Part shown: in pieces, positions 9,251-30,008 of the stretch
Position numbering within the stretch: position 1 is the first letter of the stretch
How the letters are laid out: every line of letters begins with the position of its first letter
Virus record (IMG/VR): IMGVR_UViG_3300037205_000035
Span: 1 to 63,395 of that record
DNA length: 63,395 bases
Reading direction: 5' to 3' (one strand)
Origin: a virus
Lineage: Duplodnaviria; Caudoviricetes
The notes under the pieces: generated by a model
What the model saw: only the letters and a program-made list of their open reading frames with translations
What the model was told of the DNA's origin: nothing
The model's database searches: none
Translations under genes and position numbers: made by a program

Positions 9251-10621
9251 ATGAGCCGCTGTTCCTTATGCCCAAATGTCAACAACTGTGTATCACCCTC
9301 TGGCCCTGAGGACAGCCCCTATATCCTACTCGGTGAAGCGCCCGGAGTTGAAGAAAATAGGAAGGAGATGCCATTTGTCGGGAAGACTGGACGTGAACTT
9401 AACGAGCATTACTTGCCTCTCGCGGGACTTAGACGCAATTCTGTCAGAGTCCATAATGCGATCTCCTGCTATCCAACAAGCAATCAGGGAAAGCTTGATC
9501 CCAAGTCGAGTAAAGATAGTGAGCTACTTTCTGTCTGTGCCGCCCACCATCTGTATCCAGAACTTGAGCGACGTACCCATAAGCTTATCGTGCCAATGGG
9601 TAATTTTGCCTGTAGAGCCATTGACCCTACGATAGATTTAGAATTGCAGCATGGAATCCCACTTAAAACTAAGTGGGGTCCAGTTTTTCCAATGTACCAC
9701 CCTGCTGGCGGCATTCACATGCCTAAGGCAATTCTTAAAATTCGCACAGATTGGATCAGGCTCAAGAAATATATCAAGGGAACCCTACTTGAACCCTACG
9801 ATGAGTTTGAGGGTCAAGAAGACTACCGAGTAATAGACACTGTTGAGGAACTGGATGTAATCCTTACATATCAGTGGCAGCGCCCACTAGCTTGTGATAC
9901 TGAGACTATCAAAGGTGGGGCACCTTTCTGCTTCAGCTTCTCTGTTGATGCCGGAACTGGCTACCTGATATTGGCCTCACGTAGAGACTTATTGGATAGG
10001 CTACAGTGGCACTTAGATAAGTGGCGGGGAGTTATTCTCTGGCACAACTGGTTATTCGATGCTGAAGTTGTGCGAAGAATGAATCTCAGGTTCAACCGTA
10101 AGCTTATACGTGATACGATGGTGCTTGTGTTTCATATCGGAAACTTGCCCCAAGGCTTGAAGGCGCTTGCGTATCGAGAGCTAGGCATGACCATGATGGA
10201 TTTTATGGACATGGTTACTCCACACTCCAGGCAACGTGTCTTGAAATACTACAGAGACATGTATGCAGTAAAGTGGCCTAAGCCTGAAGCTCAAATGTTG
10301 CGAGATAAGGATGGGAAGTGGAAGGTAAAGCAGCCCCACACTCTAAACACCAAGCTTAAGAGCTTCTACACATACCTAGCCAAAGACCCTGACAAGAACG
10401 TGTTTGAGGCGTGGGATAACTGGGAAGATTCACATCAGATGATTCAAGATGAGTGTGGGGAGTATCCAGGTACCTGCATAACCCACGCTTGGGAAGATGA
10501 CCCTGCTAAAGTCATCTTCTATAGTGCGAGGGATGCTGACGCTTTACTGAGGATCTACCCAATCATTAAGGGCATGGCAACAAGAGTCCGTAGAGCACCA
10601 CAAGAATTGTGGCGGAATTGA
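9251..10621 (+). CDS. Family-4 uracil-DNA glycosylase fused to a 3'-5' exonuclease (N-terminal part of a split DNA polymerase A)
   Basis: CxxC, LLGEAPG..E...PFVG, MYHPA; then CDTET, HNWLFD, DTM, YSARDA exonuclease motifs. Confidence 0.85.
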   Translation: MSRCSLCPNVNNCVSPSGPEDSPYILLGEAPGVEENRKEMPFVGKTGRELNEHYLPLAGLRRNSVRVHNAISCYPTSNQGKLDPKSSKDSELLSVCAAHHLYPELERRTHKLIVPMGNFACRAIDPTIDLELQHGIPLKTKWGPVFPMYHPAGGIHMPKAILKIRTDWIRLKKYIKGTLLEPYDEFEGQEDYRVIDTVEELDVILTYQWQRPLACDTETIKGGAPFCFSFSVDAGTGYLILASRRDLLDRLQWHLDKWRGVILWHNWLFDAEVVRRMNLRFNRKLIRDTMVLVFHIGNLPQGLKALAYRELGMTMMDFMDMVTPHSRQRVLKYYRDMYAVKWPKPEAQMLRDKDGKWKVKQPHTLNTKLKSFYTYLAKDPDKNVFEAWDNWEDSHQMIQDECGEYPGTCITHAWEDDPAKVIFYSARDADALLRIYPIIKGMATRVRRAPQELWRN

Positions 10622-10830
10622 GGCGTAATCATTACATGCAATTCACACCAGTACCAAAGAACAAGCGGGCATCTATCAAACGCAACAAGCCATCAGTTAA
10701 TGTGAGGAAGTACTTCAACAAAGAGTTAGGGTCAGCACTGGATATAGTTGATCTATACCAGATTAGTAAGTGTGCCGACATAGCCAGAGACACCAGAGCT
10801 ACAAGGTACGATAGGAGACGGCCACAATGA
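10609..10830 (+). CDS. Small basic hypothetical protein between the two polymerase parts
   Basis: Overlaps both neighbours; start uncertain. Confidence 0.4.
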   Translation: MAELRRNHYMQFTPVPKNKRASIKRNKPSVNVRKYFNKELGSALDIVDLYQISKCADIARDTRATRYDRRRPQ

Positions 10831-12263
10831 TGAGGCCGCAGAGACTCTACAATAATGTTCGCCTATTGGATGGTGCAGGCCCCTGCCTAGAGAACGTGCG
10901 CCGCCTAGATCAAGGTGCAATGCCTATGATACAGAGCATGGCACGTACTGGATTGCAGATTGACCTATCCCACTTCAAAGAGATGGAAGGAACTCTTGAA
11001 CGGGACATGGACAAGATCACAGAGGAAGTCAGAGAGCTTACCGGCTACTACATCAATGTAGACTCTGGTGATCAAGTCTCTGACCTCTTATTCAAGAAGA
11101 TGGGCCTTAAGCAAGCTCGTCTGAAGATGACCAAAAGCGGAGATAGAGAGTCTGTAGAGGATGAAGTACTCACAGCTATTCAGCACGATCACCCTGTAGT
11201 GCCTAAGATCCTTGAATACAAAGAGTTTTCTAAGCTACTCGGTACTTATGTGCGCCCTATGCCTAAACTGGCTAGGAAGGTAGGGCCTAATGAGTGGCGC
11301 ATGTTCCCCAACTTCAACACTACGCGAGTACCTAGTGGTCGCCTAAGTTGTAAAGAGCCTAACTTGCTTGCTATGCCCACTCGTACAGATAGAGGCAGGG
11401 AGATCAGGAATGGATTCATTACACGTCCGGGTTGGTGCTATCTCTCGGTCGATGAATCGCAAATCGAGCCTAGGATAGCTGCACACCGTAGTAAAGATGA
11501 AGCTCTCATCAACGTATACCTCAACGAAGAAGATATCTATAGCGACTTTGCTACAGCAGCATTCAAGCTTAAGGATGAGCGCTACTTTGACAAAGAAGCT
11601 CTCAAGTGGAAGTACCCCACAGTAAACAAAGACGATCACAGACGACCGGCTAAGACCTGTGTACTAGCTTCTATCTATGATGTGACTGGTTTAGGACTCA
11701 GTGACCAGATGCCCGTAGTTTGTAAAAATTGCAACTGGTTGAGCCTTCCTACATCTGATAAGAATTACACAAGACACCCATGCCACAAGTTTGAATCTTT
11801 ATGGGGGGAGAACAAATGCACTGACCTTATCAACTCTTTCTACCTTAAGTATCGCGGTCTAATGCTGATGAGAAAAGCTGATCATCGGTATATGATGCAA
11901 CACGCTCTCATGGTGGATATGTGGGGCAGGATACTGCATGTTCAGGCTGTCAGGAGCATATTAGAGTGGGTAGTCGCAACAGCATTAAGGGAAGGTAGTA
12001 ACTTCCCGATTCAAAGCTCAGCACAGGGTACAGTCAAGTTAGCTATGGCAGCTATCTATGATGATATGGAAGATGCGGGCATGTTTGAGGTAGCTAATGT
12101 TTTACTTCAGGTCCATGACGAGCTACTGTTTGAGGTTCGTAATGATTACGCTCAGGATCTCATGGAACTTGTTAAGTACAGATTCGAGACTTGCGTACAA
12201 CTCGACGTGCCTATAAAAGCTGGTGGGGTGATGGCTGAAAATTGGGGGGCATTACCTAAATGA
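10827..12263 (+). CDS. polA: DNA polymerase family A, polymerase domain
   Basis: SGRLSCKEPNL, motif A DESQIEPR, motif B RRPAKTCVLASIY, motif C QVHDELL. Confidence 0.92.
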   Translation: MMRPQRLYNNVRLLDGAGPCLENVRRLDQGAMPMIQSMARTGLQIDLSHFKEMEGTLERDMDKITEEVRELTGYYINVDSGDQVSDLLFKKMGLKQARLKMTKSGDRESVEDEVLTAIQHDHPVVPKILEYKEFSKLLGTYVRPMPKLARKVGPNEWRMFPNFNTTRVPSGRLSCKEPNLLAMPTRTDRGREIRNGFITRPGWCYLSVDESQIEPRIAAHRSKDEALINVYLNEEDIYSDFATAAFKLKDERYFDKEALKWKYPTVNKDDHRRPAKTCVLASIYDVTGLGLSDQMPVVCKNCNWLSLPTSDKNYTRHPCHKFESLWGENKCTDLINSFYLKYRGLMLMRKADHRYMMQHALMVDMWGRILHVQAVRSILEWVVATALREGSNFPIQSSAQGTVKLAMAAIYDDMEDAGMFEVANVLLQVHDELLFEVRNDYAQDLMELVKYRFETCVQLDVPIKAGGVMAENWGALPK

Positions 12264-12667: not shown

Positions 12668-12770
12668 TCCTGCTATACTTGAGAGCTTACATGTGCTGAT
12701 CGGTTCAGCGCAAGCCTCTGGCGCTTGAGAAACGGTTCAAATCCGTCTTAGCTCTCTGATCTCAGCAGGA
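12668..12770 (+). ncRNA. Y-RNA-like unit 1 (D-like arm, anticodon arm CTG, T arm)
   Basis: TCCTGCT..AGCAGGA and GAGAGC..GCTCTC stems, TACT/GATCT internal loop, TTACATG, CAAGC-CTCTGGC-GCTTG, ACGG-TTCAAAT-CCGT. Confidence 0.75.
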
Positions 12771-19567: not shown

Positions 19568-19613
19568 TCCAGACTTCCTATGCGGAAGTTTCGGCCTCAG
19601 CCTCATCAGTGGA
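19568..19613 (-). ncRNA. Hammerhead ribozyme 1 (type I)
   Basis: TCCA CTGATGA GGC-TGAG-GCC GAAA CTTCC-GCATA-GGAAG TC/TGGA. Confidence 0.85.
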
Positions 19614-19614
19614 T

Positions 19615-19884
19615 TCAGTAGGTGGGTTTAAAAGCCATGTCATTATCTAGCTTTAACCTCTGGTGGGGTGTAGATTCTATCACTTTAACTATCTGTAGGT
19701 AAGCTGCCCTATCTGTAAGACCCCCCATCATAAGACTAACTAAGGTGCCCCCAATTGCCCTAGTGCCAGGAACAGTAGAAGGTACGGCTAAATCTCTGAT
19801 AAATTTCCGTATCTCTGGGGCTGATAACGGAACTAGTCTATTGTCTTTTTTTGTAGTGGCCACTCGTCGTCTTGTGTCTGCCAT
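19615..19884 (-). CDS. Hypothetical protein
   Basis: GGAG SD within hammerhead 2. Confidence 0.65.
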   Translation of the reverse strand: MADTRRRVATTKKDNRLVPLSAPEIRKFIRDLAVPSTVPGTRAIGGTLVSLMMGGLTDRAAYLQIVKVIESTPHQRLKLDNDMAFKPTY

Positions 19885-19892
19885 ATTTAACT

Positions 19893-19945
19893 CTCCAGAC
19901 CAAGCTAGATAGCTCGGTTTCGCGCTTGTGCGCTCCTCAGTGGAG
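19893..19945 (-). ncRNA. Hammerhead ribozyme 2 (type I)
   Basis: CTCCA CTGAGGA GCGC-ACAA-GCGC GAAA CCGAGCT-ATCT-AGCTTGG TC/TGGAG. Confidence 0.88.
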
Positions 19946-20135
19946 TTACTGAAGCCCTCTTGGTACGTCTGGGTGCCTCAGTTTTAGGTTGTGGTGTAGG
20001 GTAGGTTTTGAAGCCTAAATTCAACTTATGGTAGTGAAGTCTTCCACAAGTTCTACATTCGTAGGTTAGGCTGTTGATATTGATGATGCCCTTATGCCGA
20101 AAGCGGCAATAGAGCTTAACCAGTTTTTCTAGCAT
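19905..20135 (-). CDS. Hypothetical protein (CxxC), 3' end overlaps hammerhead 2
   Basis: AAGGAG SD; YECRTCG. Confidence 0.6.
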   Translation of the reverse strand: MLEKLVKLYCRFRHKGIININSLTYECRTCGRLHYHKLNLGFKTYPTPQPKTEAPRRTKRASVTPLRSAQARNRAI

Positions 20136-20292
20136 TGACTCCTTTCTTGCTGACCTCTGCTAACCTGTCAGCCGTCATAGTGGCAAACCCTTTCTTGACC
20201 TTTGCTTGTCCCCCTTTGCGCCCCGCCTCTGCTCTTATCTTGTGCAGGCGCTGACGCCATTCTTTGAGAGTTTCTGGTTTGCCGTCCTTCAT
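20116..20292 (-). CDS. Small KGG-motif protein, 58 aa, not in the ORF track
   Basis: AEAGRKGGQAKVKKGFATM...EVSKKG. Confidence 0.55.
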   Translation of the reverse strand: MKDGKPETLKEWRQRLHKIRAEAGRKGGQAKVKKGFATMTADRLAEVSKKGVNARKTG

Positions 20293-20472
20293 GATCCCCA
20301 GACAGTGCTCATGGTTTAAGCTCCTTTCTTAGCTCTAGTGCCCGCTTAGCTCTCTGAGCATAGAGAGCTTGAACAATCGGACCACACTTAGTCTCAAAAG
20401 ACTTTGTATGATAGTGAGCTTCAGCAAGCTCAAGAGCACGAAACAACAGAGCGTAATCTGTTTTGTTAATTC

Positions 20473-20652
20473 TCACACCTCCCACCGTTTGACTTGGGTA
20501 TGCAGAGCCATCACAAATTCAGCAGCCATAGGCTCACTGTACTTGTATGCCTCATCATCTGACATGTTGGGTCTTTCATGCTTACCGCTTCGGATGAATG
20601 CAGCCCACTGAAGTAGGAGCTTTTGAAGCTGCTTTATTTCCTTTTGATTCAT
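20473..20652 (-). CDS. Hypothetical protein
   Basis: GAGGTG SD is the 3' strand of stem I of hammerhead 3. Confidence 0.6.
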   Translation of the reverse strand: MNQKEIKQLQKLLLQWAAFIRSGKHERPNMSDDEAYKYSEPMAAEFVMALHTQVKRWEV

Positions 20653-20657
20653 ACTCA

Positions 20658-20706
20658 CCTCTAGGGCCGTAATCATTACAGCCTTTCGCCTTCGCTCATC
20701 AGGAGG
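20658..20706 (-). ncRNA. Hammerhead ribozyme 3 (type I; palindrome in stem III)
   Basis: CCTC CTGATGA GC-GAAG-GC GAAA GGCTGTAATGATTACGGCC CTA/GAGG. Confidence 0.75.
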
Positions 20707-20778
20707 TTATTGCTTTCTCTGGCAGATTACAAAGAACACACCAGCCAGTATCAGGAACAGTAGGGCTATAGCGTGCAT

Positions 20779-21012
20779 TTAGTAGTTTCCTTCAGGATCA
20801 TGGTACTTGTCGATATGCCCAAACTCTAATGACTCATTGAAGATGCGCCTAACAGCAGCTTTTAGTAGCTGTATCTGACTAGTTCGGAATGACCATAGCA
20901 TTGTGCGTGTGCGAAACCTGCCAGCTAGGTTATGGGCTTCCTCAATGAAGTCTCTATTATATGGAACCCTAAGTTGCACACGGGTTTTAGATGTTGAAAG
21001 CTTCATTTTCAT
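20779..21012 (-). CDS. Small hypothetical protein (HARP-like pattern)
   Basis: VPYNRDFIEEAHNLAGRF...WSF. Confidence 0.5.
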   Translation of the reverse strand: MKMKLSTSKTRVQLRVPYNRDFIEEAHNLAGRFRTRTMLWSFRTSQIQLLKAAVRRIFNESLEFGHIDKYHDPEGNY

Positions 21013-21061
21013 AGTTTGTGTTCCTACCCCCTTATGAACCCCTGACCTCCCTTACAGTTCC

Positions 21062-21091
21062 AGTTTAACAGTGTTGAGTGCCTTATGTCAA
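21062..21091 (-). promoter_or_regulatory. Internal sigma70 promoter just downstream of hammerhead 4
   Basis: TTGACA-18-TAAACT with extended TG. Confidence 0.6.
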
Positions 21092-21092
21092 G

Positions 21093-21153
21093 TGGGATTC
21101 CAGACTCCTTATGCAGGAGTTTCGCCTGTTTATGCAGGCTCATCAGTAGCCCA
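21093..21153 (-). ncRNA. Hammerhead ribozyme 4 (type I)
   Basis: TGGG-CTA CTGATGA GCCTG-CATAAA-CAGGC GAAA CTCCT-GCATA-AGGAG TC/TGG-AAT-CCCA. Confidence 0.85.
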
Positions 21154-21445
21154 TATCTCGTTCTTCTTTACAGTCCCAACACTCGGTATATGGATACTTG
21201 CACTTTTCACCACACATAGAGCACGTTCCCGGCTGTTCACCTCTCCGTCTAGCCGCAATTGCTATTTGGTCTGTTCTTGATAGTGGCTGCTTATCTACAC
21301 CCGAAGCAAGTTTTACAGCTTCATCAAGTCGATTCAATGGTACAAACCAGATCTTTTTATTAGCATCCCACTTTCCACCCATATCTTTAAGTTGCTGGCG
21401 GATAGGGTAGGTATTACCAGCAACAGGCTTCATTTCTATTGTCAT
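21143..21445 (-). CDS. DUF5710-like small protein with C-terminal Zn finger
   Basis: TYPIRQQLKDMGGKWD...KIW; CxxC..CxxC. Confidence 0.6.
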   Translation of the reverse strand: MTIEMKPVAGNTYPIRQQLKDMGGKWDANKKIWFVPLNRLDEAVKLASGVDKQPLSRTDQIAIAARRRGEQPGTCSMCGEKCKYPYTECWDCKEERDMGY

Positions 21446-21454
21446 TTACTTTCT

Positions 21455-21500
21455 CCCAGACCGTAATCATTACACGGTTTCGCTTGCGCTCGTCAGTGGG
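21455..21500 (-). ncRNA. Hammerhead ribozyme 5 (type I; palindrome in stem III)
   Basis: CCCA CTGACGA GC-GCAA-GC GAAA CCG-TGTAATGATTA-CGG TC/TGGG. Confidence 0.85.
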
Positions 21501-21797
21501 CTAATCAGTAGCGATCTCGTAATAAAAGCCTTTGGCTGTACGAGTAAACAGGTTCCTTCTTAGGTATATGGGCAGTGCATTATAATACTCTATTTTGTTA
21601 ATGCGCCGCATAATCCTAAAGGGTTGAGGCTCAAACTTATAGATACCCTTTCCTTGCTCATAAACCTCATACTCAACCACATGGATTGAGTCGATAGCTA
21701 ATGCTGTATCTGACACAGCCACCATGAACTTAGACGACTGTACTATGCCTATAGCCTCAGCCCTTGTTAGTTTCTGTTTTGCTGGTTGTGGCGACAC
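21501..21797 (-). CDS. Hypothetical protein
   Basis: Stop abuts hammerhead 5; start abuts the upstream stop. Confidence 0.55.
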   Translation of the reverse strand: MSPQPAKQKLTRAEAIGIVQSSKFMVAVSDTALAIDSIHVVEYEVYEQGKGIYKFEPQPFRIMRRINKIEYYNALPIYLRRNLFTRTAKGFYYEIATD

Positions 21798-22085
21798 TTA
21801 AGTACCTTCAACATCCTGCGAGTACTGAATCTCTGCAACTTTATCATCTAAGATACCATTGCAAGCTTGGCATTCCTCGTCATCACAGCCATCAACATTA
21901 TGTTTATCCAGTGGAATGTATTCCCTTAGAATCTCATCACCACTGAGTAGTGTTACAGGCTCATCGGCCCCCCTACCAGCACCAGCTTTGGATATATCCA
22001 CATACTTGTCATACTCTAAGCCTGCTAAAGTGTGGTTACGCCCAACATAAACAGTCCCAATGTTTCCGACAACTACCTCTATCAT
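21798..22085 (-). CDS. Hypothetical protein
   Basis: GGGAG SD from hammerhead 6. Confidence 0.65.
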   Translation of the reverse strand: MIEVVVGNIGTVYVGRNHTLAGLEYDKYVDISKAGAGRGADEPVTLLSGDEILREYIPLDKHNVDGCDDEECQACNGILDDKVAEIQYSQDVEGT

Positions 22086-22094
22086 ATTTTCTCT

Positions 22095-22148
22095 CCCATA
22101 TGTCGTAACTTGTACGGCATTTCGCTAGATAACTAGCTCATCAGTGGG
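22095..22148 (-). ncRNA. Hammerhead ribozyme 6 (type I)
   Basis: CCCA CTGATGA GCTAG-TTAT-CTAGC GAAA TGCCGTA-CAAGT-TACGACA TA/TGGG. Confidence 0.85.
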
Positions 22149-22889
22149 TTAAATGTAGGCACATCCGGGGGATTTAAGCTCTCTCAGAACATCCAATGCA
22201 AGTTCTGCCGACAATATTAACCACTTATCAGCATCAGCAGAAGCAGCAGCAGCAGAACGAGCAGTATTAGCAGCAGCACGAGCAGCAGCATACACACCAT
22301 CAGCAACATGAGCAGTATCAGCAGCACGAGCAGCAGCAACAGCAGCATAGGCAGCATTAGCACCAGCAGCATAAGCAGCACCAGCAGCATAAGCAGCACC
22401 AGCAGCATCAGCATTAACATCATCATAAGCAGCATTAGCAGCAGCATTAGCAGTATAAGAAGCAGCACGAATAGCAGCAGAAGTACCTTCTGTTTCACAC
22501 CTTAATGCTACATCCAAGCAGGACTGATTATTTGGGAAAATCTGCCTAAACAATTGGGGGATTAAAACTTGGATAGTCTTTTGAGCTAATTTTTCAGAAA
22601 ATACTCCACCATCAACTACCCCCCTACTACCTACTTGTGCAATTCCTATGTTACGTAGACCCGTAGCTCTAGCTTTTGGTGATGACCAGTCTGAGTCATT
22701 GAGCCTAATTTCATATGCTCTAACAGCAGGCTCAACACAAGTAGGATTATCACCGTGGGGTAAATCAAGGGCATAACAAATAGCGGCCTCAATGTCCATC
22801 TGACCATTTCTATTTCCCACCCCCTTACACAGACCCCGACTAAGGGCTTCGTCAAATTTAGGAATCAACGTCTCAAAATTAATCTCCAT
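22149..22889 (-). CDS. Ala-rich (AAYAA/AADAA) repeat protein 1
   Basis: Globular N-terminus plus GCT-codon Ala tract. Confidence 0.7.
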   Translation of the reverse strand: MEINFETLIPKFDEALSRGLCKGVGNRNGQMDIEAAICYALDLPHGDNPTCVEPAVRAYEIRLNDSDWSSPKARATGLRNIGIAQVGSRGVVDGGVFSEKLAQKTIQVLIPQLFRQIFPNNQSCLDVALRCETEGTSAAIRAASYTANAAANAAYDDVNADAAGAAYAAGAAYAAGANAAYAAVAAARAADTAHVADGVYAAARAAANTARSAAAASADADKWLILSAELALDVLRELKSPGCAYI

Positions 22890-22894
22890 AATCT

Positions 22895-22950
22895 CTCCTT
22901 CTTCAGTACTCGATTCACGAGTAGACTAGGTTGTTAGCCTAGTTTCGGAG
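22895..22950 (-). ncRNA. Hammerhead ribozyme 7 (type II; extra A after A9)
   Basis: CTCC GAAA CTAGG-CTAACAA-CCTAG TC/TACTCG-TGAAT-CGAGTA CTGAAGA A GGAG. Confidence 0.8.
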
Positions 22951-23026
22951 TGTTTTACCGCGACTTGGTCCTCGGTGAGATAGTAGCGGGATGTGGCTTT
23001 GGCTTCGGTGATGGTTTGGCGGCCGT

Positions 23027-23218
23027 TCATGCGGACACCTCCGGTACTCCAGCAGCTTCCAGTAATTCGACATCGCCCTTGTCGATGTAGGGGACCAGAG
23101 ATTGAAGCTCGGCCAGTTCGCCGTAACTGATTCGCTCCGCCCGCAGTTCGCCGCGAAGATACTCCAGGCGTGCAGAGACTTCTTTCTCAAACAGCTTCTC
23201 ATCAGTTAATGTTGCCAT
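23027..23218 (-). CDS. Hypothetical protein
   Basis: GAGGA SD overlapping the core/stem II of hammerhead 8. Confidence 0.65.
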   Translation of the reverse strand: MATLTDEKLFEKEVSARLEYLRGELRAERISYGELAELQSLVPYIDKGDVELLEAAGVPEVSA

Positions 23219-23222
23219 GTTG

Positions 23223-23274
23223 TCCTCATCAGTACGCTTGTTGCGTAGACAGAGCGATTAAGCTCTGTTTCGGA
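23223..23274 (-). ncRNA. Hammerhead ribozyme 8 (type II)
   Basis: TCC GAAA CAGAGC-TTAATC-GCTCTG TC/TACGC-AACAA-GCGTA CTGATGA GGA. Confidence 0.85.
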
Positions 23275-23295
23275 GTTTGTGGTAAAATAGGTACC

Positions 23296-23754
23296 ATGAC
23301 ACACCGTAAAGTATGCCCAAAATGCCTTAAGAATCTCAGCCTAGATAAGTTTAAGCCTAGACCAAACGGAACTTATTCATACTGCTATGCTTGCGAGCTA
23401 TCTTATTATAAAGATTACAACAGGAAAAGATATGCAAGCCCTAAAGCTAGACAAGATGAGCTTAAGAGAACCAAAGACCGTTATCACGCTACATTCAAAC
23501 CAGACCGCATAGCCCGTAAGAAAGAGCTTATACGAATGATGGGCGGGAAGTGTGAACGCTGCGGATACTGCAAAAGTGCAGCGGCCTTAGACTTCCACCA
23601 TAAAGATCCAAAGACTAAGCGAAGAACCGTGTCCCACTTGATAGCCTTAAGATCAACAGATGCTTGGTCAGAGGCAAAGATAGAGGCTTCAGACTGTGAA
23701 CTTCTATGCAGCAATTGCCACAGAGAAGAAACATACCCCGGATGGGATATGTAA
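23296..23754 (+). CDS. HNH endonuclease, antisense to the surrounding operon
   Basis: CPKC..CYAC; GGKCERCGY..ALDFHH..LLCSNCHREE; TGGTAAAAT extended -10 just upstream of ATG 23296. Confidence 0.85.
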   Translation: MTHRKVCPKCLKNLSLDKFKPRPNGTYSYCYACELSYYKDYNRKRYASPKARQDELKRTKDRYHATFKPDRIARKKELIRMMGGKCERCGYCKSAAALDFHHKDPKTKRRTVSHLIALRSTDAWSEAKIEASDCELLCSNCHREETYPGWDM

Positions 23755-23808
23755 GCCCTGACTACCTTTATAGGTAGTTTCGCGTAATGATTACGCTCAT
23801 CAGAAGGC
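23755..23808 (-). ncRNA. Hammerhead ribozyme 9 (type I; palindrome is stem II)
   Basis: GCCTT CTGATGA GCGTAATCATTACGC GAAA CTACCT-ATAA-AGGTAG TC/AGGGC. Confidence 0.88.
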
Positions 23809-24960
23809 AAGTTGCAACACTTTACCAGCAGCCCTATCCATAGCATCTCGCTTGTCAGCGTAGTTTTGCTGAGAGAGTCTGGTAACTCCTGATGCAAAAC
23901 CCCAAGCTGAGTTAGGTTCATTGCCATGCAAGTCTGCATGACGGTCAGCTAACACATAAGCTTCTTCGCAGTCTTTGCGTGAGAGGCCAAAGGACTTACC
24001 ATATACGAAGTCTACGACCTCTTCTTTAGACTGCCCTAACAGCTTTTGTTTGGCCTGTCTAATCCGAATTTCATCATCGGATGCAGCAGTTTCCATCCTA
24101 GCCGTTATTGAAGCCATTGCTTCAGAGAATGCCCTACGTGCTTCCCCTGTGTGGCGGATTGTCACCTCACCTATGGTTTTGGTGTTCCAACAGATGTGAT
24201 TTCCGCACACCGATTCATACAGGAACAAAGTAGCTCTGAATCTAGCAGCGCCAACTTCTGAATTGCTCCAGAACACCCCACGATAGAGCGTTTCCCCATC
24301 ACCACCATTGATAGCCCGATCTTCATTGACCTGAAAGATAAAGCAATCATGGTCTGAAGCATATAGGCCGCTAGGTGATATCTCATCCCCGACCTTGACA
24401 CCTAGAGATGGGTGTGCCGACTTACGCAACACATCAGCCTCAGTAGCCTGACGTGTGGGCACATTCTCTAAGCCGCAAGGCCGAGCAGGGGGAGTCTTCC
24501 AACCTTCGTTCTCCTCCAACGCAAGCGCGAGGTTCGCTATCTCATAATTCCAGATGCGCGAGTACCTATCACTAGTAATGCAACGAACATCAAGCCCACC
24601 GTTCTGATGGAACATGATTTGCTGTCTACCACTAAGCTTAGACAAGCCGTGATTTAAGCAGTCCGCTGCAATTGGGGCGGGAAGCTGACGAAGATAAGAA
24701 GCTGGAGCTTCACAGAGATTGCTGAACTGCCCGAAAGCGTAATGCTGAAACTTCGCACCATGCTGACGAGTGGGACCATAGAGCAACAGGTCATTATCGT
24801 CAGTAGGTTGTACGGAGCAGGTAGAAAGCGCAAGTTCTTTTACTTTGCTTTCTTCTGCATAAGTGCGAGTCTTTTCCAGCAATTCGCTGAGTGTCCAGAA
24901 TCTTTGATCAGCGGGGCGGACTGCCCATTGACGGGAAGCCGCCACTAAGTTTGTACTCAT
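23800..24960 (-). CDS. DUF932-like phage/plasmid protein
   Basis: RCITSDRYSRIWN, WSNSEVG, YESVCGN, IRHTG. Confidence 0.7.
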   Translation of the reverse strand: MSTNLVAASRQWAVRPADQRFWTLSELLEKTRTYAEESKVKELALSTCSVQPTDDNDLLLYGPTRQHGAKFQHYAFGQFSNLCEAPASYLRQLPAPIAADCLNHGLSKLSGRQQIMFHQNGGLDVRCITSDRYSRIWNYEIANLALALEENEGWKTPPARPCGLENVPTRQATEADVLRKSAHPSLGVKVGDEISPSGLYASDHDCFIFQVNEDRAINGGDGETLYRGVFWSNSEVGAARFRATLFLYESVCGNHICWNTKTIGEVTIRHTGEARRAFSEAMASITARMETAASDDEIRIRQAKQKLLGQSKEEVVDFVYGKSFGLSRKDCEEAYVLADRHADLHGNEPNSAWGFASGVTRLSQQNYADKRDAMDRAAGKVLQLAF

Positions 24961-24978
24961 GTGTCGTCCTTTATATTT

Positions 24979-25039
24979 GATGTGATCTTCAGCAATAGGC
25001 CATCAACCCTATTGAACGCGAGTTAATCGCGTTTCACTC
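24979..25039 (-). ncRNA. Hammerhead ribozyme 10 (type II, weak stem II)
   Basis: GT GAAA CGCGA-TTAAC-TCGCG TT/CAATAGG-GTTGATGG-CCTATTG CTGAAGA TCAC. Confidence 0.6.
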
Positions 25040-25273
25040 TTCTGCCCTCGCTATTCTGCCAACTTTCTTTACCCAATCAGGTGAATCATCAGCTAGTGCT
25101 GAGGGTAGATTATCGGCAAGAATGAGACACAAGCTATACCAGTTGTCATGCATACGTTCTGGGGCACGATATGGATAAGTGTGTCTCATAAAGTCATCAA
25201 TAGCAGAGGATGCCGGATGATCCGGTGGAATCTCCGCTTTGATTCTGTCAACTACTTCACCAAAGTTACGCAT
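25034..25273 (-). CDS. Hypothetical protein (start revised to ATG 25273)
   Basis: GAGGT SD from hammerhead 11. Confidence 0.65.
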   Translation of the reverse strand: MRNFGEVVDRIKAEIPPDHPASSAIDDFMRHTYPYRAPERMHDNWYSLCLILADNLPSALADDSPDWVKKVGRIARAEE

Positions 25274-25279
25274 ATTTTT

Positions 25280-25342
25280 ACCTCTAACACCGTAATCATT
25301 ACACGGTGTTTTCGCTTGATTCACACAAGCTGATCACGAGGT
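25280..25342 (-). ncRNA. Hammerhead ribozyme 11 (type I; G3-C8 core variant; palindrome in stem III)
   Basis: ACCTC GTGATCA GCTTG-TGTGAAT-CAAGC GAAA ACACCG-TGTAATGATTA-CGGTGT TA/GAGGT. Confidence 0.8.
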
Positions 25343-25525
25343 TTAGTCCTGCTTCGTATATACGTTCAAACCAAGAGTTGCCCCAGTGTTAGGGTCAACC
25401 TGAATGTTTCCCTGTGTTGTGGCAATAACCGTAGTCTTGCCCGATGCGCTCTTGCCATGCCGTTCAGATAAGTCAACCTCAATCGTGAGGATCTTACCTT
25501 TGATCGTAGTCTTTACATTAACCAT
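25343..25525 (-). CDS. Small phage protein
   Basis: LTIEVDLS..HGKSASGKTTVIATTQGN; AAGGA SD. Confidence 0.7.
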   Translation of the reverse strand: MVNVKTTIKGKILTIEVDLSERHGKSASGKTTVIATTQGNIQVDPNTGATLGLNVYTKQD

Positions 25526-25547
25526 GTTTTGTCCTTTGAGGTTGAAT

Positions 25548-25579
25548 ACCCCGACCGTAATGATTACGGTTTCGTCTTG

Positions 25580-25598
<19 letters not shown>
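25548..25598 (-). ncRNA. Hammerhead ribozyme 12 (type I; palindrome is stem III)
   Basis: ACCTC CTGACGA GTCTT-AAC-AAGAC GAAA CCGTAATCATTACGG TC/GGGGT. Confidence 0.85.
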
Positions 25599-26527
<929 letters not shown>

Positions 26528-26536
26528 ATGTTTCAT

Positions 26537-26585
26537 CTCCATACACGCCCACATTAGCGTGTTTCGCTTGCGCTCATCAGTGGAG
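26537..26585 (-). ncRNA. Hammerhead ribozyme 13 (type I)
   Basis: CTCCA CTGATGA GC-GCAA-GC GAAA CACGCT-AATGTG-GGCGTG TA/TGGAG. Confidence 0.85.
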
Positions 26586-26900
26586 CTACACATCAGCATA
26601 ATGATATGTAGTATGTTTCTCTGGCTTCTTCTCGTGGAGTGTGACCCACACATGCCGAACGTAGTAATCTTCGGGCGTGTTTGATCTCTCATCATCATAT
26701 TTCATGCGTTTCTCAAACACCCATCCAATTGTGCGGACACCTTTTACAGTGTCTATGTGAACTTTTGAGATACAGCGGCCATACTCACGCTGTAGACCTT
26801 TAAACAGCTTGCCTTTGTCATCAGTCCACGCCTCAAACACGCCGGATTCACCAAATTGATACCCTTTGGTTTCGTTGGTGTACGTCTCTGAAATGTACAT
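26586..26900 (-). CDS. Hypothetical protein (start revised to ATG 26900)
   Basis: GGAG SD from hammerhead 14; stop abuts hammerhead 13. Confidence 0.7.
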   Translation of the reverse strand: MYISETYTNETKGYQFGESGVFEAWTDDKGKLFKGLQREYGRCISKVHIDTVKGVRTIGWVFEKRMKYDDERSNTPEDYYVRHVWVTLHEKKPEKHTTYHYADV

Positions 26901-26905
26901 ATCAT

Positions 26906-26952
26906 CTCCATACGCTTTGCAGCGTTTCATCCTTTCGGAATCATCAGTGGAG
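26906..26952 (-). ncRNA. Hammerhead ribozyme 14 (type I; U.U at base of stem II)
   Basis: CTCCA CTGATGA T-TCC-GAAA-GGA-T GAAA CGCT-GCAA-AGCG TA/TGGAG. Confidence 0.8.
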
Positions 26953-27092
26953 TATGCCTTTTATCCGTCAAGGCTAAGGCCGATATTCTCGTGACTCGGA
27001 CCAACGCTATCTTTTTACCTGAGAGTTCACTTGCGCGTGGTTAGCAAGACCGTTGCGGTAGAGGATACATTAACAGGGGAAAGATAGAAAAC

Positions 27093-27383
27093 TTAGGCTA
27101 CTTGCTTGCGATTGTCTTTTGTTACGTATGCTGGATCATTTAGCGGACAATCAGCAGCAGTATGAAACTGTGGCGCATCACTTGCGTATATCTGGCTGTA
27201 ACTCTTGAGGCCGTATTTGATCGGCACTCTGAAGTCATCAGGCCGTCTAACCCAAGTTTGGGTTTCGCCATTACGTCTCCAGTGCTCAGTGTGTTCCTTG
27301 ATACCACCATTGGGACCAATGACACGAGTACAAGTGCCGAAGTGAAACTCGTGGGCAGTTAAAGCTTGCTCTTTTGTAATCAT
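27093..27383 (-). CDS. Hypothetical protein
   Basis: WRRNGETQTWVRRPDDFRVPIKYGL; GGAG SD from hammerhead 15. Confidence 0.7.
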   Translation of the reverse strand: MITKEQALTAHEFHFGTCTRVIGPNGGIKEHTEHWRRNGETQTWVRRPDDFRVPIKYGLKSYSQIYASDAPQFHTAADCPLNDPAYVTKDNRKQVA

Positions 27384-27390
27384 TACGTTT

Positions 27391-27447
27391 CTCCCGACAC
27401 TAGACTAGCTAGTGTTTCGCTCGAATTTCACGAGCTAATCATGAGAG
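27391..27447 (-). ncRNA. Hammerhead ribozyme 15 (type I; A3-U8 core variant)
   Basis: CTCTC ATGATTA GCTCG-TGAAATT-CGAGC GAAA CACTAG-CTAGT-CTAGTG TC/GGGAG. Confidence 0.8.
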
Positions 27448-27448
27448 T

Positions 27449-27685
27449 TTAGCTGTATATAGGGAACACGGAGTCAACCATACTCAGAATATCTGACTTA
27501 GTGTGCCCCAGGTCATAAAGCTTCCTAAGTTGCACACGCAACTCAGTAGCTTGCACCAATTTTACTTCAGTCCAGATAGGATCAATGAAGTCTTTAGCTT
27601 CTTTCAATCCAACTGTCACGTTGCACGTTTCTTGAATGTGAACACGCAACTTCTTAATCGCATCAATCTTGTTTGTAGCTGTCAT
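27449..27685 (-). CDS. Small protein with ribosomal L7/L12 C-terminal-like motif
   Basis: NKIDAIKKLR...VGLKEAKDFID; start revised to ATG 27685. Confidence 0.6.
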   Translation of the reverse strand: MTATNKIDAIKKLRVHIQETCNVTVGLKEAKDFIDPIWTEVKLVQATELRVQLRKLYDLGHTKSDILSMVDSVFPIYS

Positions 27686-27691
27686 GTGATC

Positions 27692-27740
27692 TCCCGACAC
27701 CAGCATTTAACGCTAGTGTTTCGCATTGCTCGTCAGGGGA
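27692..27740 (-). ncRNA. Hammerhead ribozyme 16 (type I)
   Basis: TCCC CTGACGA GC-AAT-GC GAAA CACTAGCG-TTAAA-TGCTGGTG TC/GGGA. Confidence 0.8.
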
Positions 27741-27971
27741 TTAGCGCCGTCGCTTTGTAGCCCGTCGCTCATTCGTCATACAGCCGCTGCACTGATTCTT
27801 TGTTCCTTTTGTGCTCGCAGCACAAGTACAAGGTTCAATTTTAGTCGATGGCACACGCCTTGCACTATCCCTATGTCTCTGACCATTAAGATTATGGCTA
27901 GGCATAGTTCGTATACCTGCATCTGAAAGACTCTTACCACGTTCTAACTTGGGTATTGCCGATGTGTTCAT
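27741..27971 (-). CDS. Small basic hypothetical protein
   Basis: Bounded exactly by hammerheads 17 and 16. Confidence 0.6.
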   Translation of the reverse strand: MNTSAIPKLERGKSLSDAGIRTMPSHNLNGQRHRDSARRVPSTKIEPCTCAASTKGTKNQCSGCMTNERRATKRRR

Positions 27972-27981
27972 TTACTTAATC

Positions 27982-28030
27982 TCCCGACTGCTATCTCTAG
28001 CAGTTTCGTCTGTTAAGACTCATCAGGGGA
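27982..28030 (-). ncRNA. Hammerhead ribozyme 17 (type I)
   Basis: TCCC CTGATGA GTCT-TAAC-AGAC GAAA CTGCTA-GAGA-TAGCAG TC/GGGA. Confidence 0.88.
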
Positions 28031-28031
28031 T

Positions 28032-28799
28032 TTAAGCTTGCATACCATACTGTTCTGTAATATACCGCCGCAAGCTTTTAGTCAGTTGCTCCAATCCATA
28101 CTTCTCAAATGTCCCGCCGAAAGCTTTGGTTATACCTTCAGGGTATCGACTAGGCGATTCAGGACTCCATGCTATAGCTAAAGCGTGCTGTCCCACTGGA
28201 GCCACTCGGAATCTCTTAACTGCCCTAATCAGCATAGATGGAACATAGTACTTCTCATCTAAGTGAGAATCCAAGTGGGATGTATAGTGATTGACTTCAC
28301 CTAATGACTGCCCGTTCTGAGTAATCATTAAGCAATACCAGCAGTCACCATTCGACGGTGCGGGAACAGAGCCAGCTACGAAAGCTTTCATGTAACCTTC
28401 CACGTAAGTTTTGATCCTACGTTTCAGTTTCAAAAGCTTTGCAGGGTCTTCACCTTCACCAGTCACACTACCGTCCGAATGCACCATAATGCCGTCATCG
28501 AATGCGAATTGCTTTGCATTGTCTGACCAGCTTTGGCCTAATCGCATGTACCATATACCTCTGTCAGTGTAAAACCGCGCGATGTTTTGAAACTCATTCA
28601 TGCGCTGTTTCGTGGTGACAGTTCGCCAACCACCGGAATCAAAGCTCACATCGCCGTTTGGCTTGAAAGTCATGATTACAGTATTGTGTAGGCGTATGTT
28701 GATGTCATCTCCATTACGCTCTAAGTACGTGTTGTTTGCGATCTTTCGGCGGGTAGAACATCTCCCAGTTAGTTGATCGTTTGCCGTCTGATAGTTCAT
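28032..28799 (-). CDS. Phage hypothetical protein
   Basis: RLHNT...DSGGWRTVTTKQRMN; bounded by hammerheads 18 and 17. Confidence 0.7.
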   Translation of the reverse strand: MNYQTANDQLTGRCSTRRKIANNTYLERNGDDINIRLHNTVIMTFKPNGDVSFDSGGWRTVTTKQRMNEFQNIARFYTDRGIWYMRLGQSWSDNAKQFAFDDGIMVHSDGSVTGEGEDPAKLLKLKRRIKTYVEGYMKAFVAGSVPAPSNGDCWYCLMITQNGQSLGEVNHYTSHLDSHLDEKYYVPSMLIRAVKRFRVAPVGQHALAIAWSPESPSRYPEGITKAFGGTFEKYGLEQLTKSLRRYITEQYGMQA

Positions 28800-28806
28800 A
28801 GTCTCT

Positions 28807-28865
28807 CCATACCACCGTAATCGTTACAGTGGTTTCATCGCTGGACTAGAGCGAATCATCAGTGG
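28807..28865 (-). ncRNA. Hammerhead ribozyme 18 (type I; palindrome variant in stem III)
   Basis: CCA CTGATGA T-TCGCT-CTAGTCC-AGCGA-T GAAA CCACTGTAACGATTACGGTGG TA/TGG. Confidence 0.8.
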
Positions 28866-29294: not shown

Positions 29295-29810
29295 CTACTC
29301 AGTAAATGGTATCTGAAATGTTTGCCTGATATATACGGATTGCTGTTGTCTAGCAGCAGCATACGTAGCATCAGCAGCAGCATACGCAGCAGCATACGCA
29401 GCAGCATACGTAGCATCAGCAGCAGCATACGCAGCAGCATACGCAGCAGCATACGCATCAGCAGCAGCAGCACGAGCAGCAGCAGCAGCAGCATCAGCAG
29501 CATACGCAGCAGCAGCATCAGCAGCATACGCAGCAGCAGCATCAGCAGCATACGCAGCAGCATCAGCACGAGCAGCAGCAGCAGCAGCATCAGCAGCATA
29601 ACGCGAGTTTTTTGCGTCATCTGCAAACTTCCTAGCGGCTACTGGCAACAGTGCAATGTTGCTTGATACGATTGAATGCCCTATCCACCACAGTAACCAT
29701 GATGGATTAGGGCAATTCTGCCATACCTCAACAGCAGTGCTGTATTGTTTGGCCCATGCCCTAGCTTCTGTACACGCGCCAATCGATTTCAGGTGTTCGT
29801 GAATGTTCAT
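29295..29810 (-). CDS. Ala-rich repeat protein 3, paralog of 25580..26527
   Basis: HLKSIGACTEARAWA..EVWQNCPNPSWLLWW. Confidence 0.7.
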   Translation of the reverse strand: MNIHEHLKSIGACTEARAWAKQYSTAVEVWQNCPNPSWLLWWIGHSIVSSNIALLPVAARKFADDAKNSRYAADAAAAAARADAAAYAADAAAAYAADAAAAYAADAAAAAARAAAADAYAAAYAAAYAAADATYAAAYAAAYAAADATYAAARQQQSVYIRQTFQIPFTE

Positions 29811-30008
29811 ATACGCTCCAAACCACCACCTAAGCAACACCTATTTATGACCCGTTGAGACTCCGTAATAGCTAGTCTCTAATCTCTAATGCACACGGTA
29901 ACGTGCTAGGTCTTAGGTGGTGGATTGCAGCGTGCAATCTAATCGTCTAGTAGCCTTGCAATCATGCTCTATCTATTAGGCGATTAGATTGCCTAAACTG
30001 TAATGGTT

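Follow-up and report, generated by a model that had tools for sequence, protein, structure and literature searches.

The window analysed here, the whole of IMG/VR virus record IMGVR_UViG_3300037205_000035 (63,395 bases, estimated completeness 100%), is a phage genome with genes for terminase, portal, major head protein, helicase and a split DNA polymerase; no near-identical relative was found in the phage collection. Its genes run along the plus strand throughout, except in a minus-strand block at about 18.1–32.5 kb, whose genes are small and mostly without known function and include those for a ParB-like protein and a DUF932 protein; one HNH endonuclease gene in the same region lies on the opposite (plus) strand. 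Inside this block is an array of hammerheads, small self-cleaving ribozymes, and in 13 of them the Shine–Dalgarno (SD) sequence of the next gene is itself a strand of a ribozyme helix. Clusters of phage hammerheads and a processing role for them were already known; what is new is a rare, recurrent variant in which the ribosome binding site (RBS) is part of the ribozyme.

The copies were located with a descriptor that demands an NUGANNA core with complementary positions 3 and 8, a stem II hairpin, GAAA, a stem III hairpin closed by A-U, a residue other than G at position 17 (H17) and a stem I of at least 3 base pairs (bp), and both strands were scanned. Applied strictly, the descriptor returned 13 type I hammerheads, all of them on the minus strand, and nothing on the plus strand; 100 Markov shuffles gave a mean of 0.1 and at most 1. 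When one mismatch or bulge was tolerated in stem III, the count rose to 15 type I and 2 type II copies, every one on the minus strand and within 19568–28865; with one further, doubtful type II-like copy, these make up the array, which spans 9.3 kb. Numbered by ascending coordinate, the copies correspond exactly to those of a preliminary description of this DNA. Rfam at its gathering thresholds found none of them in the window. Below threshold there were five weak hammerhead matches, the best at 28.2 bits (cutoff 37, type II) and 27.9 bits (cutoff 48.5, type III). Short stems and minimal loops score poorly, so we take this to be a limit of the curated models and not the lack of any defining feature. 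MAFFT aligned the 15 type I copies in a structurally incorrect way, and the descriptor and its shuffle controls were used in place of a covariance model. A type III descriptor yielded loose false positives only and was dropped.

The catalytic core is strictly conserved, and no invariant position is lost in any copy that the descriptor found. U4, G5, A6, A9, the A15.1–U16.1 pair and a non-G residue at H17 are kept in all 17 descriptor copies. C3 and G8 are present in 15, and the other two are doubly changed in a compensated manner, to G3–C8 in copy 11 and to A3–U8 in copy 15; a single uncompensated change at positions 3 and 8 occurs in none of the 17. The pairs of stem I vary between copies (A-U, C-G, U-A and U-G), and stems II and III are highly diverse in sequence. 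This compensation at 3–8, together with the covariation of the stems, points to selection on RNA structure. Natural covariation to U3–A8 in the core has been reported for prophage hammerheads, as described in the available text of that study (PMC3088659). Minimum-energy folding of the isolated copies predicts the full three-stem hammerhead in about half of the 17 and stems II and III in most of the others. Judged by these features, the 17 copies look like functional ribozymes. No riboswitch family was matched in the Rfam search, and stems II and III are plain hairpins of 7–25 nucleotides (nt), suggesting that the copies act as a constitutive platform and not as a ligand-controlled switch.

Hammerhead cleavage occurs after position 17, leaving a 5′-OH on the 3′ product and a 2′,3′-cyclic phosphate on the upstream product. 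Eleven type I copies (2, 3, 5, 6, 11 and 13–18) have GGAG, GGGA or GAGG starting at +1 or +2 after this site, and the motif forms the 3′ strand of a 3–5-bp stem I. An ATG follows the SD after a spacer of 5–10 nt and opens a reading frame of 59–315 amino acids (aa), so that the 3′ product is predicted to begin 0–1 nt before the SD with a leader of 9–14 nt. In the two type II copies, the SD is the 5′ strand of stem II (AGGAG, 4 bp, in copy 7; GAGGA, 3 bp, in copy 8) and lies 21–24 nt past the cleavage site, behind the stem I hairpin. In total, the SD is base-paired in a ribozyme helix in 13 copies. The preliminary description had placed the SD in stem I of the same 11 type I copies and in stem II of copies 7 and 8, and both assignments hold copy for copy. 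The partner strands, CUCCA, UCCC and ACCUC, appear to resemble the anti-SD end of 16S rRNA. Across the array, stem I carries 44 G residues on its 3′ strands and 1 on its 5′ strands, an asymmetry that a need for stability alone would not give. The anatomy also bears on gene calls: for 5 of the 13 downstream genes (those after copies 16, 14, 13, 11 and 3), the longest open reading frame (ORF) begins 5′ of the cleavage site, and these starts are moved to the SD-supported ATG, in keeping with the earlier claim that several starts in the ORF track need correcting.

The copies are listed below in the direction of transcription of the block, all on the minus strand.

Hammerhead 18, type I, 28807..28865, minus strand: stem I CCA/UGG; 3′ product from 28809, beginning UGGAGAGACUAUG; ATG 28799, 255 aa.
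Hammerhead 17, type I, 27982..28030, minus strand: stem I UCCC/GGGA; 3′ product from 27985, GGGAG; ATG 27971, 76 aa; Rfam Hammerhead_3 at 27.9 bits, under the cutoff of 48.5.
Hammerhead 16, type I, 27692..27740, minus strand: stem I UCCC/GGGA; 3′ product from 27695; ATG 27685, 78 aa; longest-ORF start 27706 inside the ribozyme.
Hammerhead 15, type I, 27391..27447, minus strand: stem I CUCUC/GGGAG; core AUGAUUA; 3′ product from 27395; ATG 27383, within a GTAATGATTAC motif, 96 aa; minimum-energy fold a three-stem hammerhead.
Hammerhead 14, type I, 26906..26952, minus strand: stem I CUCCA/UGGAG; U.U pair at 10.1-11.1; 3′ product from 26910; ATG 26900, 104 aa; longest-ORF start 26930 inside the ribozyme.
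Hammerhead 13, type I, 26537..26585, minus strand: stem I CUCCA/UGGAG; 3′ product from 26541; ATG 26527, a 315-aa alanine-rich repeat protein; longest-ORF start 26698 upstream of the ribozyme.
Hammerhead 12, type I, 25548..25598, minus strand: stem I ACCUC/GGGGU, which is not the SD; real SD AAGGA at +17; ATG 25525; by eye, the new 5′ end GGGGU is able to re-pair with a downstream ACCUC into a terminal hairpin.
Hammerhead 11, type I, 25280..25342, minus strand: stem I ACCUC/GAGGU; core GUGAUCA; 3′ product from 25284; ATG 25273, 79 aa; folding z = -4.5.
Copy 10, doubtful type II-like, 24982..25039, minus strand: by eye, GAAA, a 6-bp stem III, U17, a 7-bp stem I hairpin and a CUGAAGA core; stem II only U.U, C-G, A.A, C-G; missed by the descriptor, its two hairpins predicted by folding; SD AAGGA further downstream, ahead of the DUF932 gene (ATG 24960).
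Hammerhead 9, type I, 23755..23808, minus strand: stem I GCCUU/AGGGC; stem II GCGUAAUCAUUACGC; DUF932 stop codon within the CUGAUGA core; then a terminator-like hairpin, 23752-23731, and the antisense of the HNH endonuclease gene.
Hammerhead 8, type II, 23223..23274, minus strand: stem II UCC/GGA, with GGA within the SD GAGGA; cleavage before 23247; ATG 23218, 63 aa; Rfam Hammerhead_II at 28.2 bits, E = 0.033, under the cutoff of 37.
Hammerhead 7, type II, 22895..22950, minus strand: stem II CUCC/GGAG, with GGAG belonging to the SD AGGAG; one extra A after A9; cleavage before 22923; ATG 22889, 246 aa; minimum-energy fold a three-stem hammerhead.
Hammerhead 6, type I, 22095..22148, minus strand: stem I CCCA/UGGG; 3′ product from 22098, UGGGAG; ATG 22085, 95 aa.
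Hammerhead 5, type I, 21455..21500, minus strand: stem I CCCA/UGGG; 3′ product from 21458, UGGGAG; ATG 21445, 100 aa.
Hammerhead 4, type I, 21100..21149, minus strand: stem I CUA/UGG, which is not the SD; upstream gene stop codon inside the core; then a promoter-like site, 21091-21062; next gene start 21012.
Hammerhead 3, type I, 20657..20707, minus strand: stem I ACCUC/GAGGU; 3′ product from 20661; ATG 20652, 59 aa; longest-ORF start 20676 inside the ribozyme.
Hammerhead 2, type I, 19893..19945, minus strand: stem I CUCCA/UGGAG; 3′ product from 19897; ATG 19884, 89 aa; an upstream 76-aa ORF runs through the ribozyme and ends in stem III.
Hammerhead 1, type I, 19568..19613, minus strand: stem I UCCA/UGGA; no start codon after it; the new 5′ end UGGAG is able to fold back over a GTAATCATTAC hairpin and pair again with a downstream CCUCCA, making a terminal hairpin.

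Copies 9, 4, 12 and 1, in which no SD is part of the ribozyme, look from their layout like end-trimming ribozymes. For copy 10, an alternative register with the upstream CUGAUGA at 25092 was rejected by eye, having neither a stem I nor G12. The only long gap in the array is an ORF-free stretch of about 140 nt (26953-27092, minus strand) between the gene ending at 27093 and copy 14, and it may hold a promoter or a small RNA. Hammerheads 9 and 8 bracket the HNH endonuclease gene (23296-23754, plus strand; PHROG 2255, E = 1e-25), which lies antisense in the block; cleavage at both would excise the antisense RNA of this gene. Ahead of hammerhead 3, a 23-codon hydrophobic ORF, MHAIALLFLILAGVFFVICQRKQ (20707-20778, minus strand), begins directly after the stop codon of the preceding gene (UAAAUG), and its own stop codon overlaps the first base of the hammerhead 3 stem I.

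The anatomy of the fused design is established in this analysis, as are its rarity and its recurrence in other phages. For rarity, we drew two background samples of hammerheads from viral contigs, chosen by core and stem II sequence only and blind to stem I: 62 type I copies from 80 listed loci (55 distinct) and 53 from another 80 listed loci, to which all background counts refer. An automatic rule called a copy fused if GGAG, GAGG or AGGA lay at most 9 nt past the cleavage site and if the first start codon to open an ORF of 40 aa or more stood 4–12 nt past that motif. By this rule, 8 of the 15 type I copies in the window are fused, compared with 0/62 and 0/53 in the background samples (Fisher p = 4e-9). 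With starts chosen by hand, the window figure is 11/15; copies 14, 13 and 3 fail the rule only through an earlier candidate start codon. Background hammerheads usually have a 6-bp stem I with a mild G asymmetry between the strands (98:61 and 91:50 in the first and second samples), and in the second sample a separate SD lies downstream of stem I in 23 of the 53. Fusion of SD and hammerhead is therefore confirmed not to be the usual build of phage hammerheads and to lie far beyond chance.

These counts bear on the simplest alternative, namely that fast, constitutive cleavage processes the operon, that the SD overlaps stem I merely because intergenic space has been squeezed, and that masking is too weak or too brief to matter. 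The spacing of the genes fits such compaction: the spacers are about the length of the ribozyme plus some 10 nt, and the upstream stop codon abuts stem I in most copies. Stop codons are likewise adjacent to 34 of the 62 ordinary phage hammerheads in the first background sample, so that adjacency by itself is common. Set against this, phages that are also compact provide none of the fused design among the 115 background hammerheads, and we regard compaction alone as rather unlikely.

Recurrence was assessed by targeted pattern searches, in which the SD-stem motif was fixed beforehand and the start codon and any extra pairing were left free. The fused design was found in at least 12 other phage contigs. 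The CUCCA...UGGAG pattern matched four viral contigs, and in record G001, a distant relative with replication proteins 30–35% identical, all three hammerheads are fused, with UGGAG or GGGAG and then ATG; records G002 and G003 hold further fused cases. The UCCC...GGGAG pattern gave ten matches, all of them hammerheads and eight of them distinct, of which nine have a start codon 7–13 nt after the motif and an ORF of at least 40 aa. Some extend to 6–7-bp stems of the CCUCCC/GGGAGG type, pairing the whole SD, which is more than compaction needs. In 185,579 prokaryote genomes, the CUCCA...UGGAG pattern had 34 matches, none with hammerhead stems; these are chance occurrences, mostly in coding sequence, and they pointed to no host and yielded no prophage case.

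One contig (L007, 567-11389) carries six type I hammerheads in 11 kb, five with a 6-bp stem I and one with 3 bp. All of its leaders are AT-rich and none of the six is followed by an ATG at SD spacing, though one stem I (ACUCCA/UGGAGU) contains GGAG. This arrangement suggests a host with no reliance on SD sequences.

Relatives of the gene set itself show how the junctions may change. Among 13 fetched loci with a DUF932 protein (57–70% identity), none has a hammerhead beside the DUF932 gene; the hammerhead of L190 lies about 3.3 kb upstream of its DUF932 gene, before another gene. In a syntenic relative (L004:7760-9230), the junctions run from a stop codon through a GC-rich hairpin to a conserved UGAGGUA(U/A)(G)ACUAUG; they resemble the 3′ half of the window hammerhead junctions (stem III plus SD) without the catalytic strands. 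The sister contigs L190 and L189, about 90% identical, differ at one junction (L190:6498-6722, L189:6717-6800). In L190, a 62-aa ORF and a CUCCA/UGGAG hammerhead stand directly before the ATG of a 127-aa gene that is RNase III-like by a signature seen by eye, where L189 has a plain hairpin and AGGAGG; no homologue of this RNase III-like gene is encoded in the window. An ORF together with its ribozyme and SD can therefore replace a hairpin/SD junction as a unit.

Such a swap could also be read at the level of DNA, with the repeats serving as conserved linkers for recombinational exchange of cassettes and RNA cleavage secondary or lost. The small flanking genes, mostly of no known function, would suit this, as would the occurrence in several stems of a palindrome, GTAATSATTAC, that is found genome-wide. 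Outside the core, however, the copies share little sequence (mean column identity 51%, in the structurally wrong MAFFT alignment), which would make them poor substrates for homologous recombination, and the compensated 3–8 changes and stem covariation speak for selection on RNA structure. We consider a role in DNA exchange highly improbable.

In the mechanism that we propose, the leftward accessory-gene block would be transcribed as a long polycistronic RNA, and the hammerheads, each set precisely in the interval from one gene's stop codon to the start codon of the next, would cut it into single-gene mRNAs. At the 13 fused junctions, the SD would pair with its upstream pyrimidine strand and be partly masked while the RNA is uncut. 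After self-cleavage, the helix would be held only in trans; as it has only 3–5 bp, the two products should separate, and the SD would be freed. The downstream mRNA would begin just ahead of its SD with a 5′-OH end, and the upstream mRNA would keep its stop codon and end just past it in two hairpins and a 2′,3′-cyclic phosphate. The translation of each cistron would be tied to its own cleavage event and insulated by it, and a gene with its ribozyme and SD would form a portable expression cassette. We infer cleavage in vivo, release of the product and a gain in translation or stability from the anatomy. Of the functions in this scheme, processing into single-gene mRNAs that begin at the SD is the best supported, and cleavage-gated translation is plausible.

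Masking was estimated from partition functions, which ignore tertiary structure, as the cost of opening the SD. The mean cost is 2.63 kcal/mol in the uncleaved RNA and 1.30 kcal/mol in the 3′ product, and the cost falls on cleavage in 12 of the 13 copies and rises in copy 3. The preliminary description had proposed that the uncleaved fold hides the RBS; the part of this claim that stands is that the SD is one strand of the helix closing the ribozyme, and the hiding itself is predicted to be only modest. That the predicted masking is just 1–4 kcal/mol speaks for compaction alone. A study of twister ribozymes in Escherichia coli supports either side, as far as its available text goes: cleavage in the 5′ untranslated region by itself left expression unchanged, in line with compaction, whereas an SD masked inside the ribozyme did alter expression (PMC5052635).

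The position of the upstream stop codon adds a second route by which the SD could be exposed, one absent from the preliminary description. In most SD-bearing type I copies, the stop codon is 0–1 nt before stem I, and in copies 9, 4, 2 and 7 it falls inside the core or stem III. With about 12 nt past the stop codon covered by a terminating ribosome, such a ribosome should also melt the helix, and translation could in this way interfere with folding of the ribozyme. Taken to its limit, this gives a different account, in which the terminating ribosome melts the 5′ strand of stem I, frees the SD by long-range translational coupling and blocks the ribozyme, so that only poorly translated RNA is cut. 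The stop positions just described agree with ribosome-controlled folding of this kind. Copy 14, however, has the same design without any upstream ORF, and the strict conservation of the catalytic core argues for selection on cleavage itself; ribosome-controlled folding appears improbable.

The fate of the 5′-OH end is a further consideration. RNase E dislikes 5′-OH ends, and RNase J1 degrades the 5′-OH product of the glmS ribozyme. Any stabilizing benefit would depend on host nucleases.

Several observations weigh against coupling of translation to cleavage. The predicted masking is uneven as well as modest, with the SDs of copies 6 and 11 nearly open before cleavage and that of copy 3 more closed after it. 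In hosts with RNase J, the 5′-OH end can destabilize an mRNA rather than protect it. No copy reaches an Rfam hammerhead threshold. Stem I is 3–5 bp, open-ended and without an internal loop, and the stem II loops are unconserved, some being GNRA-like; no tertiary contact between stems I and II, of the kind that fast cleavage at cellular Mg2+ requires, is evident in the array, and in copy 18 stem I has only 3 bp. In type I copies 1, 4, 9 and 12, the 3′ strand of stem I is still G-rich but does not serve as an SD; G-richness alone is thus no proof of SD use. Finally, 12 of the 13 DUF932-related loci lack any hammerhead and have hairpin-plus-SD junctions instead, which makes the ribozymes dispensable for this gene set.

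With these points taken into account, we favour the proposed mechanism as a whole, in which SD-fused ribozymes cut the operon and translation is both coupled to and insulated by cleavage, with slightly more confidence than doubt. A stronger claim is put forward tentatively, with more doubt than confidence: that this is natural ribozyme-gated translation, in which an anti-SD/SD duplex closes the ribozyme, the next cistron is translated only after cleavage or after melting by an upstream ribosome, and the cassette moves between phages.

Several other features of the genome were noted. The 11-bp palindrome GTAATSATTAC has 62 occurrences with at most one mismatch, compared with 0.99 expected, and 36 of these are exact (examples at 1532, 7175, 8355, 17016, 33219, 40399, 42561, 55318 and 61676). 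It is present at about 1 per kb in both gene blocks; gene ends and the DNA between them make up only 14% of the genome but hold half of the exact sites. In the array, the palindrome makes up stem III of hammerheads 3, 5, 11, 12 and, with one mismatch, 18, as well as stem II of hammerhead 9. It is common in related contigs too, with 8 copies in 10.7 kb of one of them (L196), and could act as a hairpin in RNA or as a binding site for a protein. Two separate ORFs, 9251-10621 and 10827-12263 (both plus strand), encode the DNA polymerase; they match successive parts of one PHROG profile and are followed by a single tRNA-Gln(CUG) gene at 12683-12756 (plus strand). Three paralogous proteins (25580-26527, 22149-22889 and 29295-29840, all minus strand) carry long alanine-rich A/D/Y/G repeats encoded by GCU-rich DNA and have no match in Pfam or PHROG. 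Sub-threshold Rfam matches to isrG and to miRNA families in the window were rejected as artefacts of this GCU-repeat coding sequence. Among 10 further phage proteins scanned against Pfam, none was an RNA ligase, a kinase or an RtcB-like enzyme.

The role of bacterial and phage hammerheads is described as still largely elusive, with glmS the only well-understood bacterial self-cleaving ribozyme, in the available text of a 2019 review (PMC6765202). If true, ribozyme-gated translation would be a first defined function for these hammerheads, and the coupling of processing to RBS unmasking is specific enough to be open to simple reporter assays. The array offers 13 natural junctions in which one set of nucleotides would serve both cleavage and ribosome binding. 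It brings its own internal controls in the four copies without SD use and the two compensated core variants, and relatives supply plain hairpin junctions at equivalent positions. The copies are also very small natural parts, at 46–63 nt. For annotation, the consequence is that no copy passes the Rfam thresholds and that gene calls by the longest ORF go wrong at 5 of the 13 junctions.

Insulators of the RiboJ type are similar to the window array in that a ribozyme just upstream of the RBS strips away upstream context and leaves a defined 5′ end. RiboJ leaves a hairpin and a separate RBS, whereas the type I mRNAs of the window would begin at the SD; the type II copies 7 and 8 would leave a 5′ hairpin.

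RNase III processing of T7 early mRNA, as presented in the available part of the source (PMC3867540), also uses intercistronic signals to produce gene-sized mRNAs with structured 3′ ends. T7 relies on a host enzyme that cuts hairpins, whereas the window RNA is predicted to cut itself and the phage encodes no RNase III homologue; hairpin junctions and a small RNase III-like gene are present in the related contigs L189 and L190. With glmS, the window shares a self-cleaving ribozyme in a bacterial 5′ leader that affects the downstream gene, an effect that for the window we infer. In the portion of the review available, glmS needs a metabolite cofactor and its cleavage lowers expression (PMC6765202); in the window no ligand site is evident and cleavage would be expected to permit expression.

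The closest natural precedent is the clustered hammerheads of prophages, which flank genes, were proposed to process long phage transcripts, and cleave both in vitro and in E. coli, according to the available text (Perreault et al. 2011, PMC3088659). There, as in the window, type I and II hammerheads stand between single small phage genes on one transcript. The clusters described in that text hold about three hammerheads, and its 3–8 variant is U-A (PMC3088659); the window block has 17–18 hammerheads in 9.3 kb, with a stem I of 3–5 bp and G-C and A-U as the 3–8 variants. Neither 'Shine' nor 'ribosome binding' occurs anywhere in the main text of that study, though its supplementary figures might show SD positions; in the window, the SD is a strand of the ribozyme. 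For an SD within a natural hammerhead, the literature yielded only engineered systems, in a search with thin coverage of subscription journals, and an earlier mention is possible.

Those engineered systems are the nearest functional parallel, and the likeness drawn in the preliminary description, of a natural version of engineered ribozyme–RBS switches, is a real one: SD-masking hammerhead and twister switches work in E. coli, and cleavage raises expression, as reported in the available text (Felletti et al. 2016, PMC5052635, citing Ogawa & Maeda). In both cases the SD is paired inside a self-cleaving ribozyme; that its release turns on translation was shown for the engineered ones. The switches are artificial, with extended stems and usually a ligand-sensing aptamer, whereas the window has plain hairpins and a very short helix at 13 junctions. 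If the proposed mechanism holds, evolution would have arrived at a design that synthetic biologists built in their SD-masking switches and insulators.

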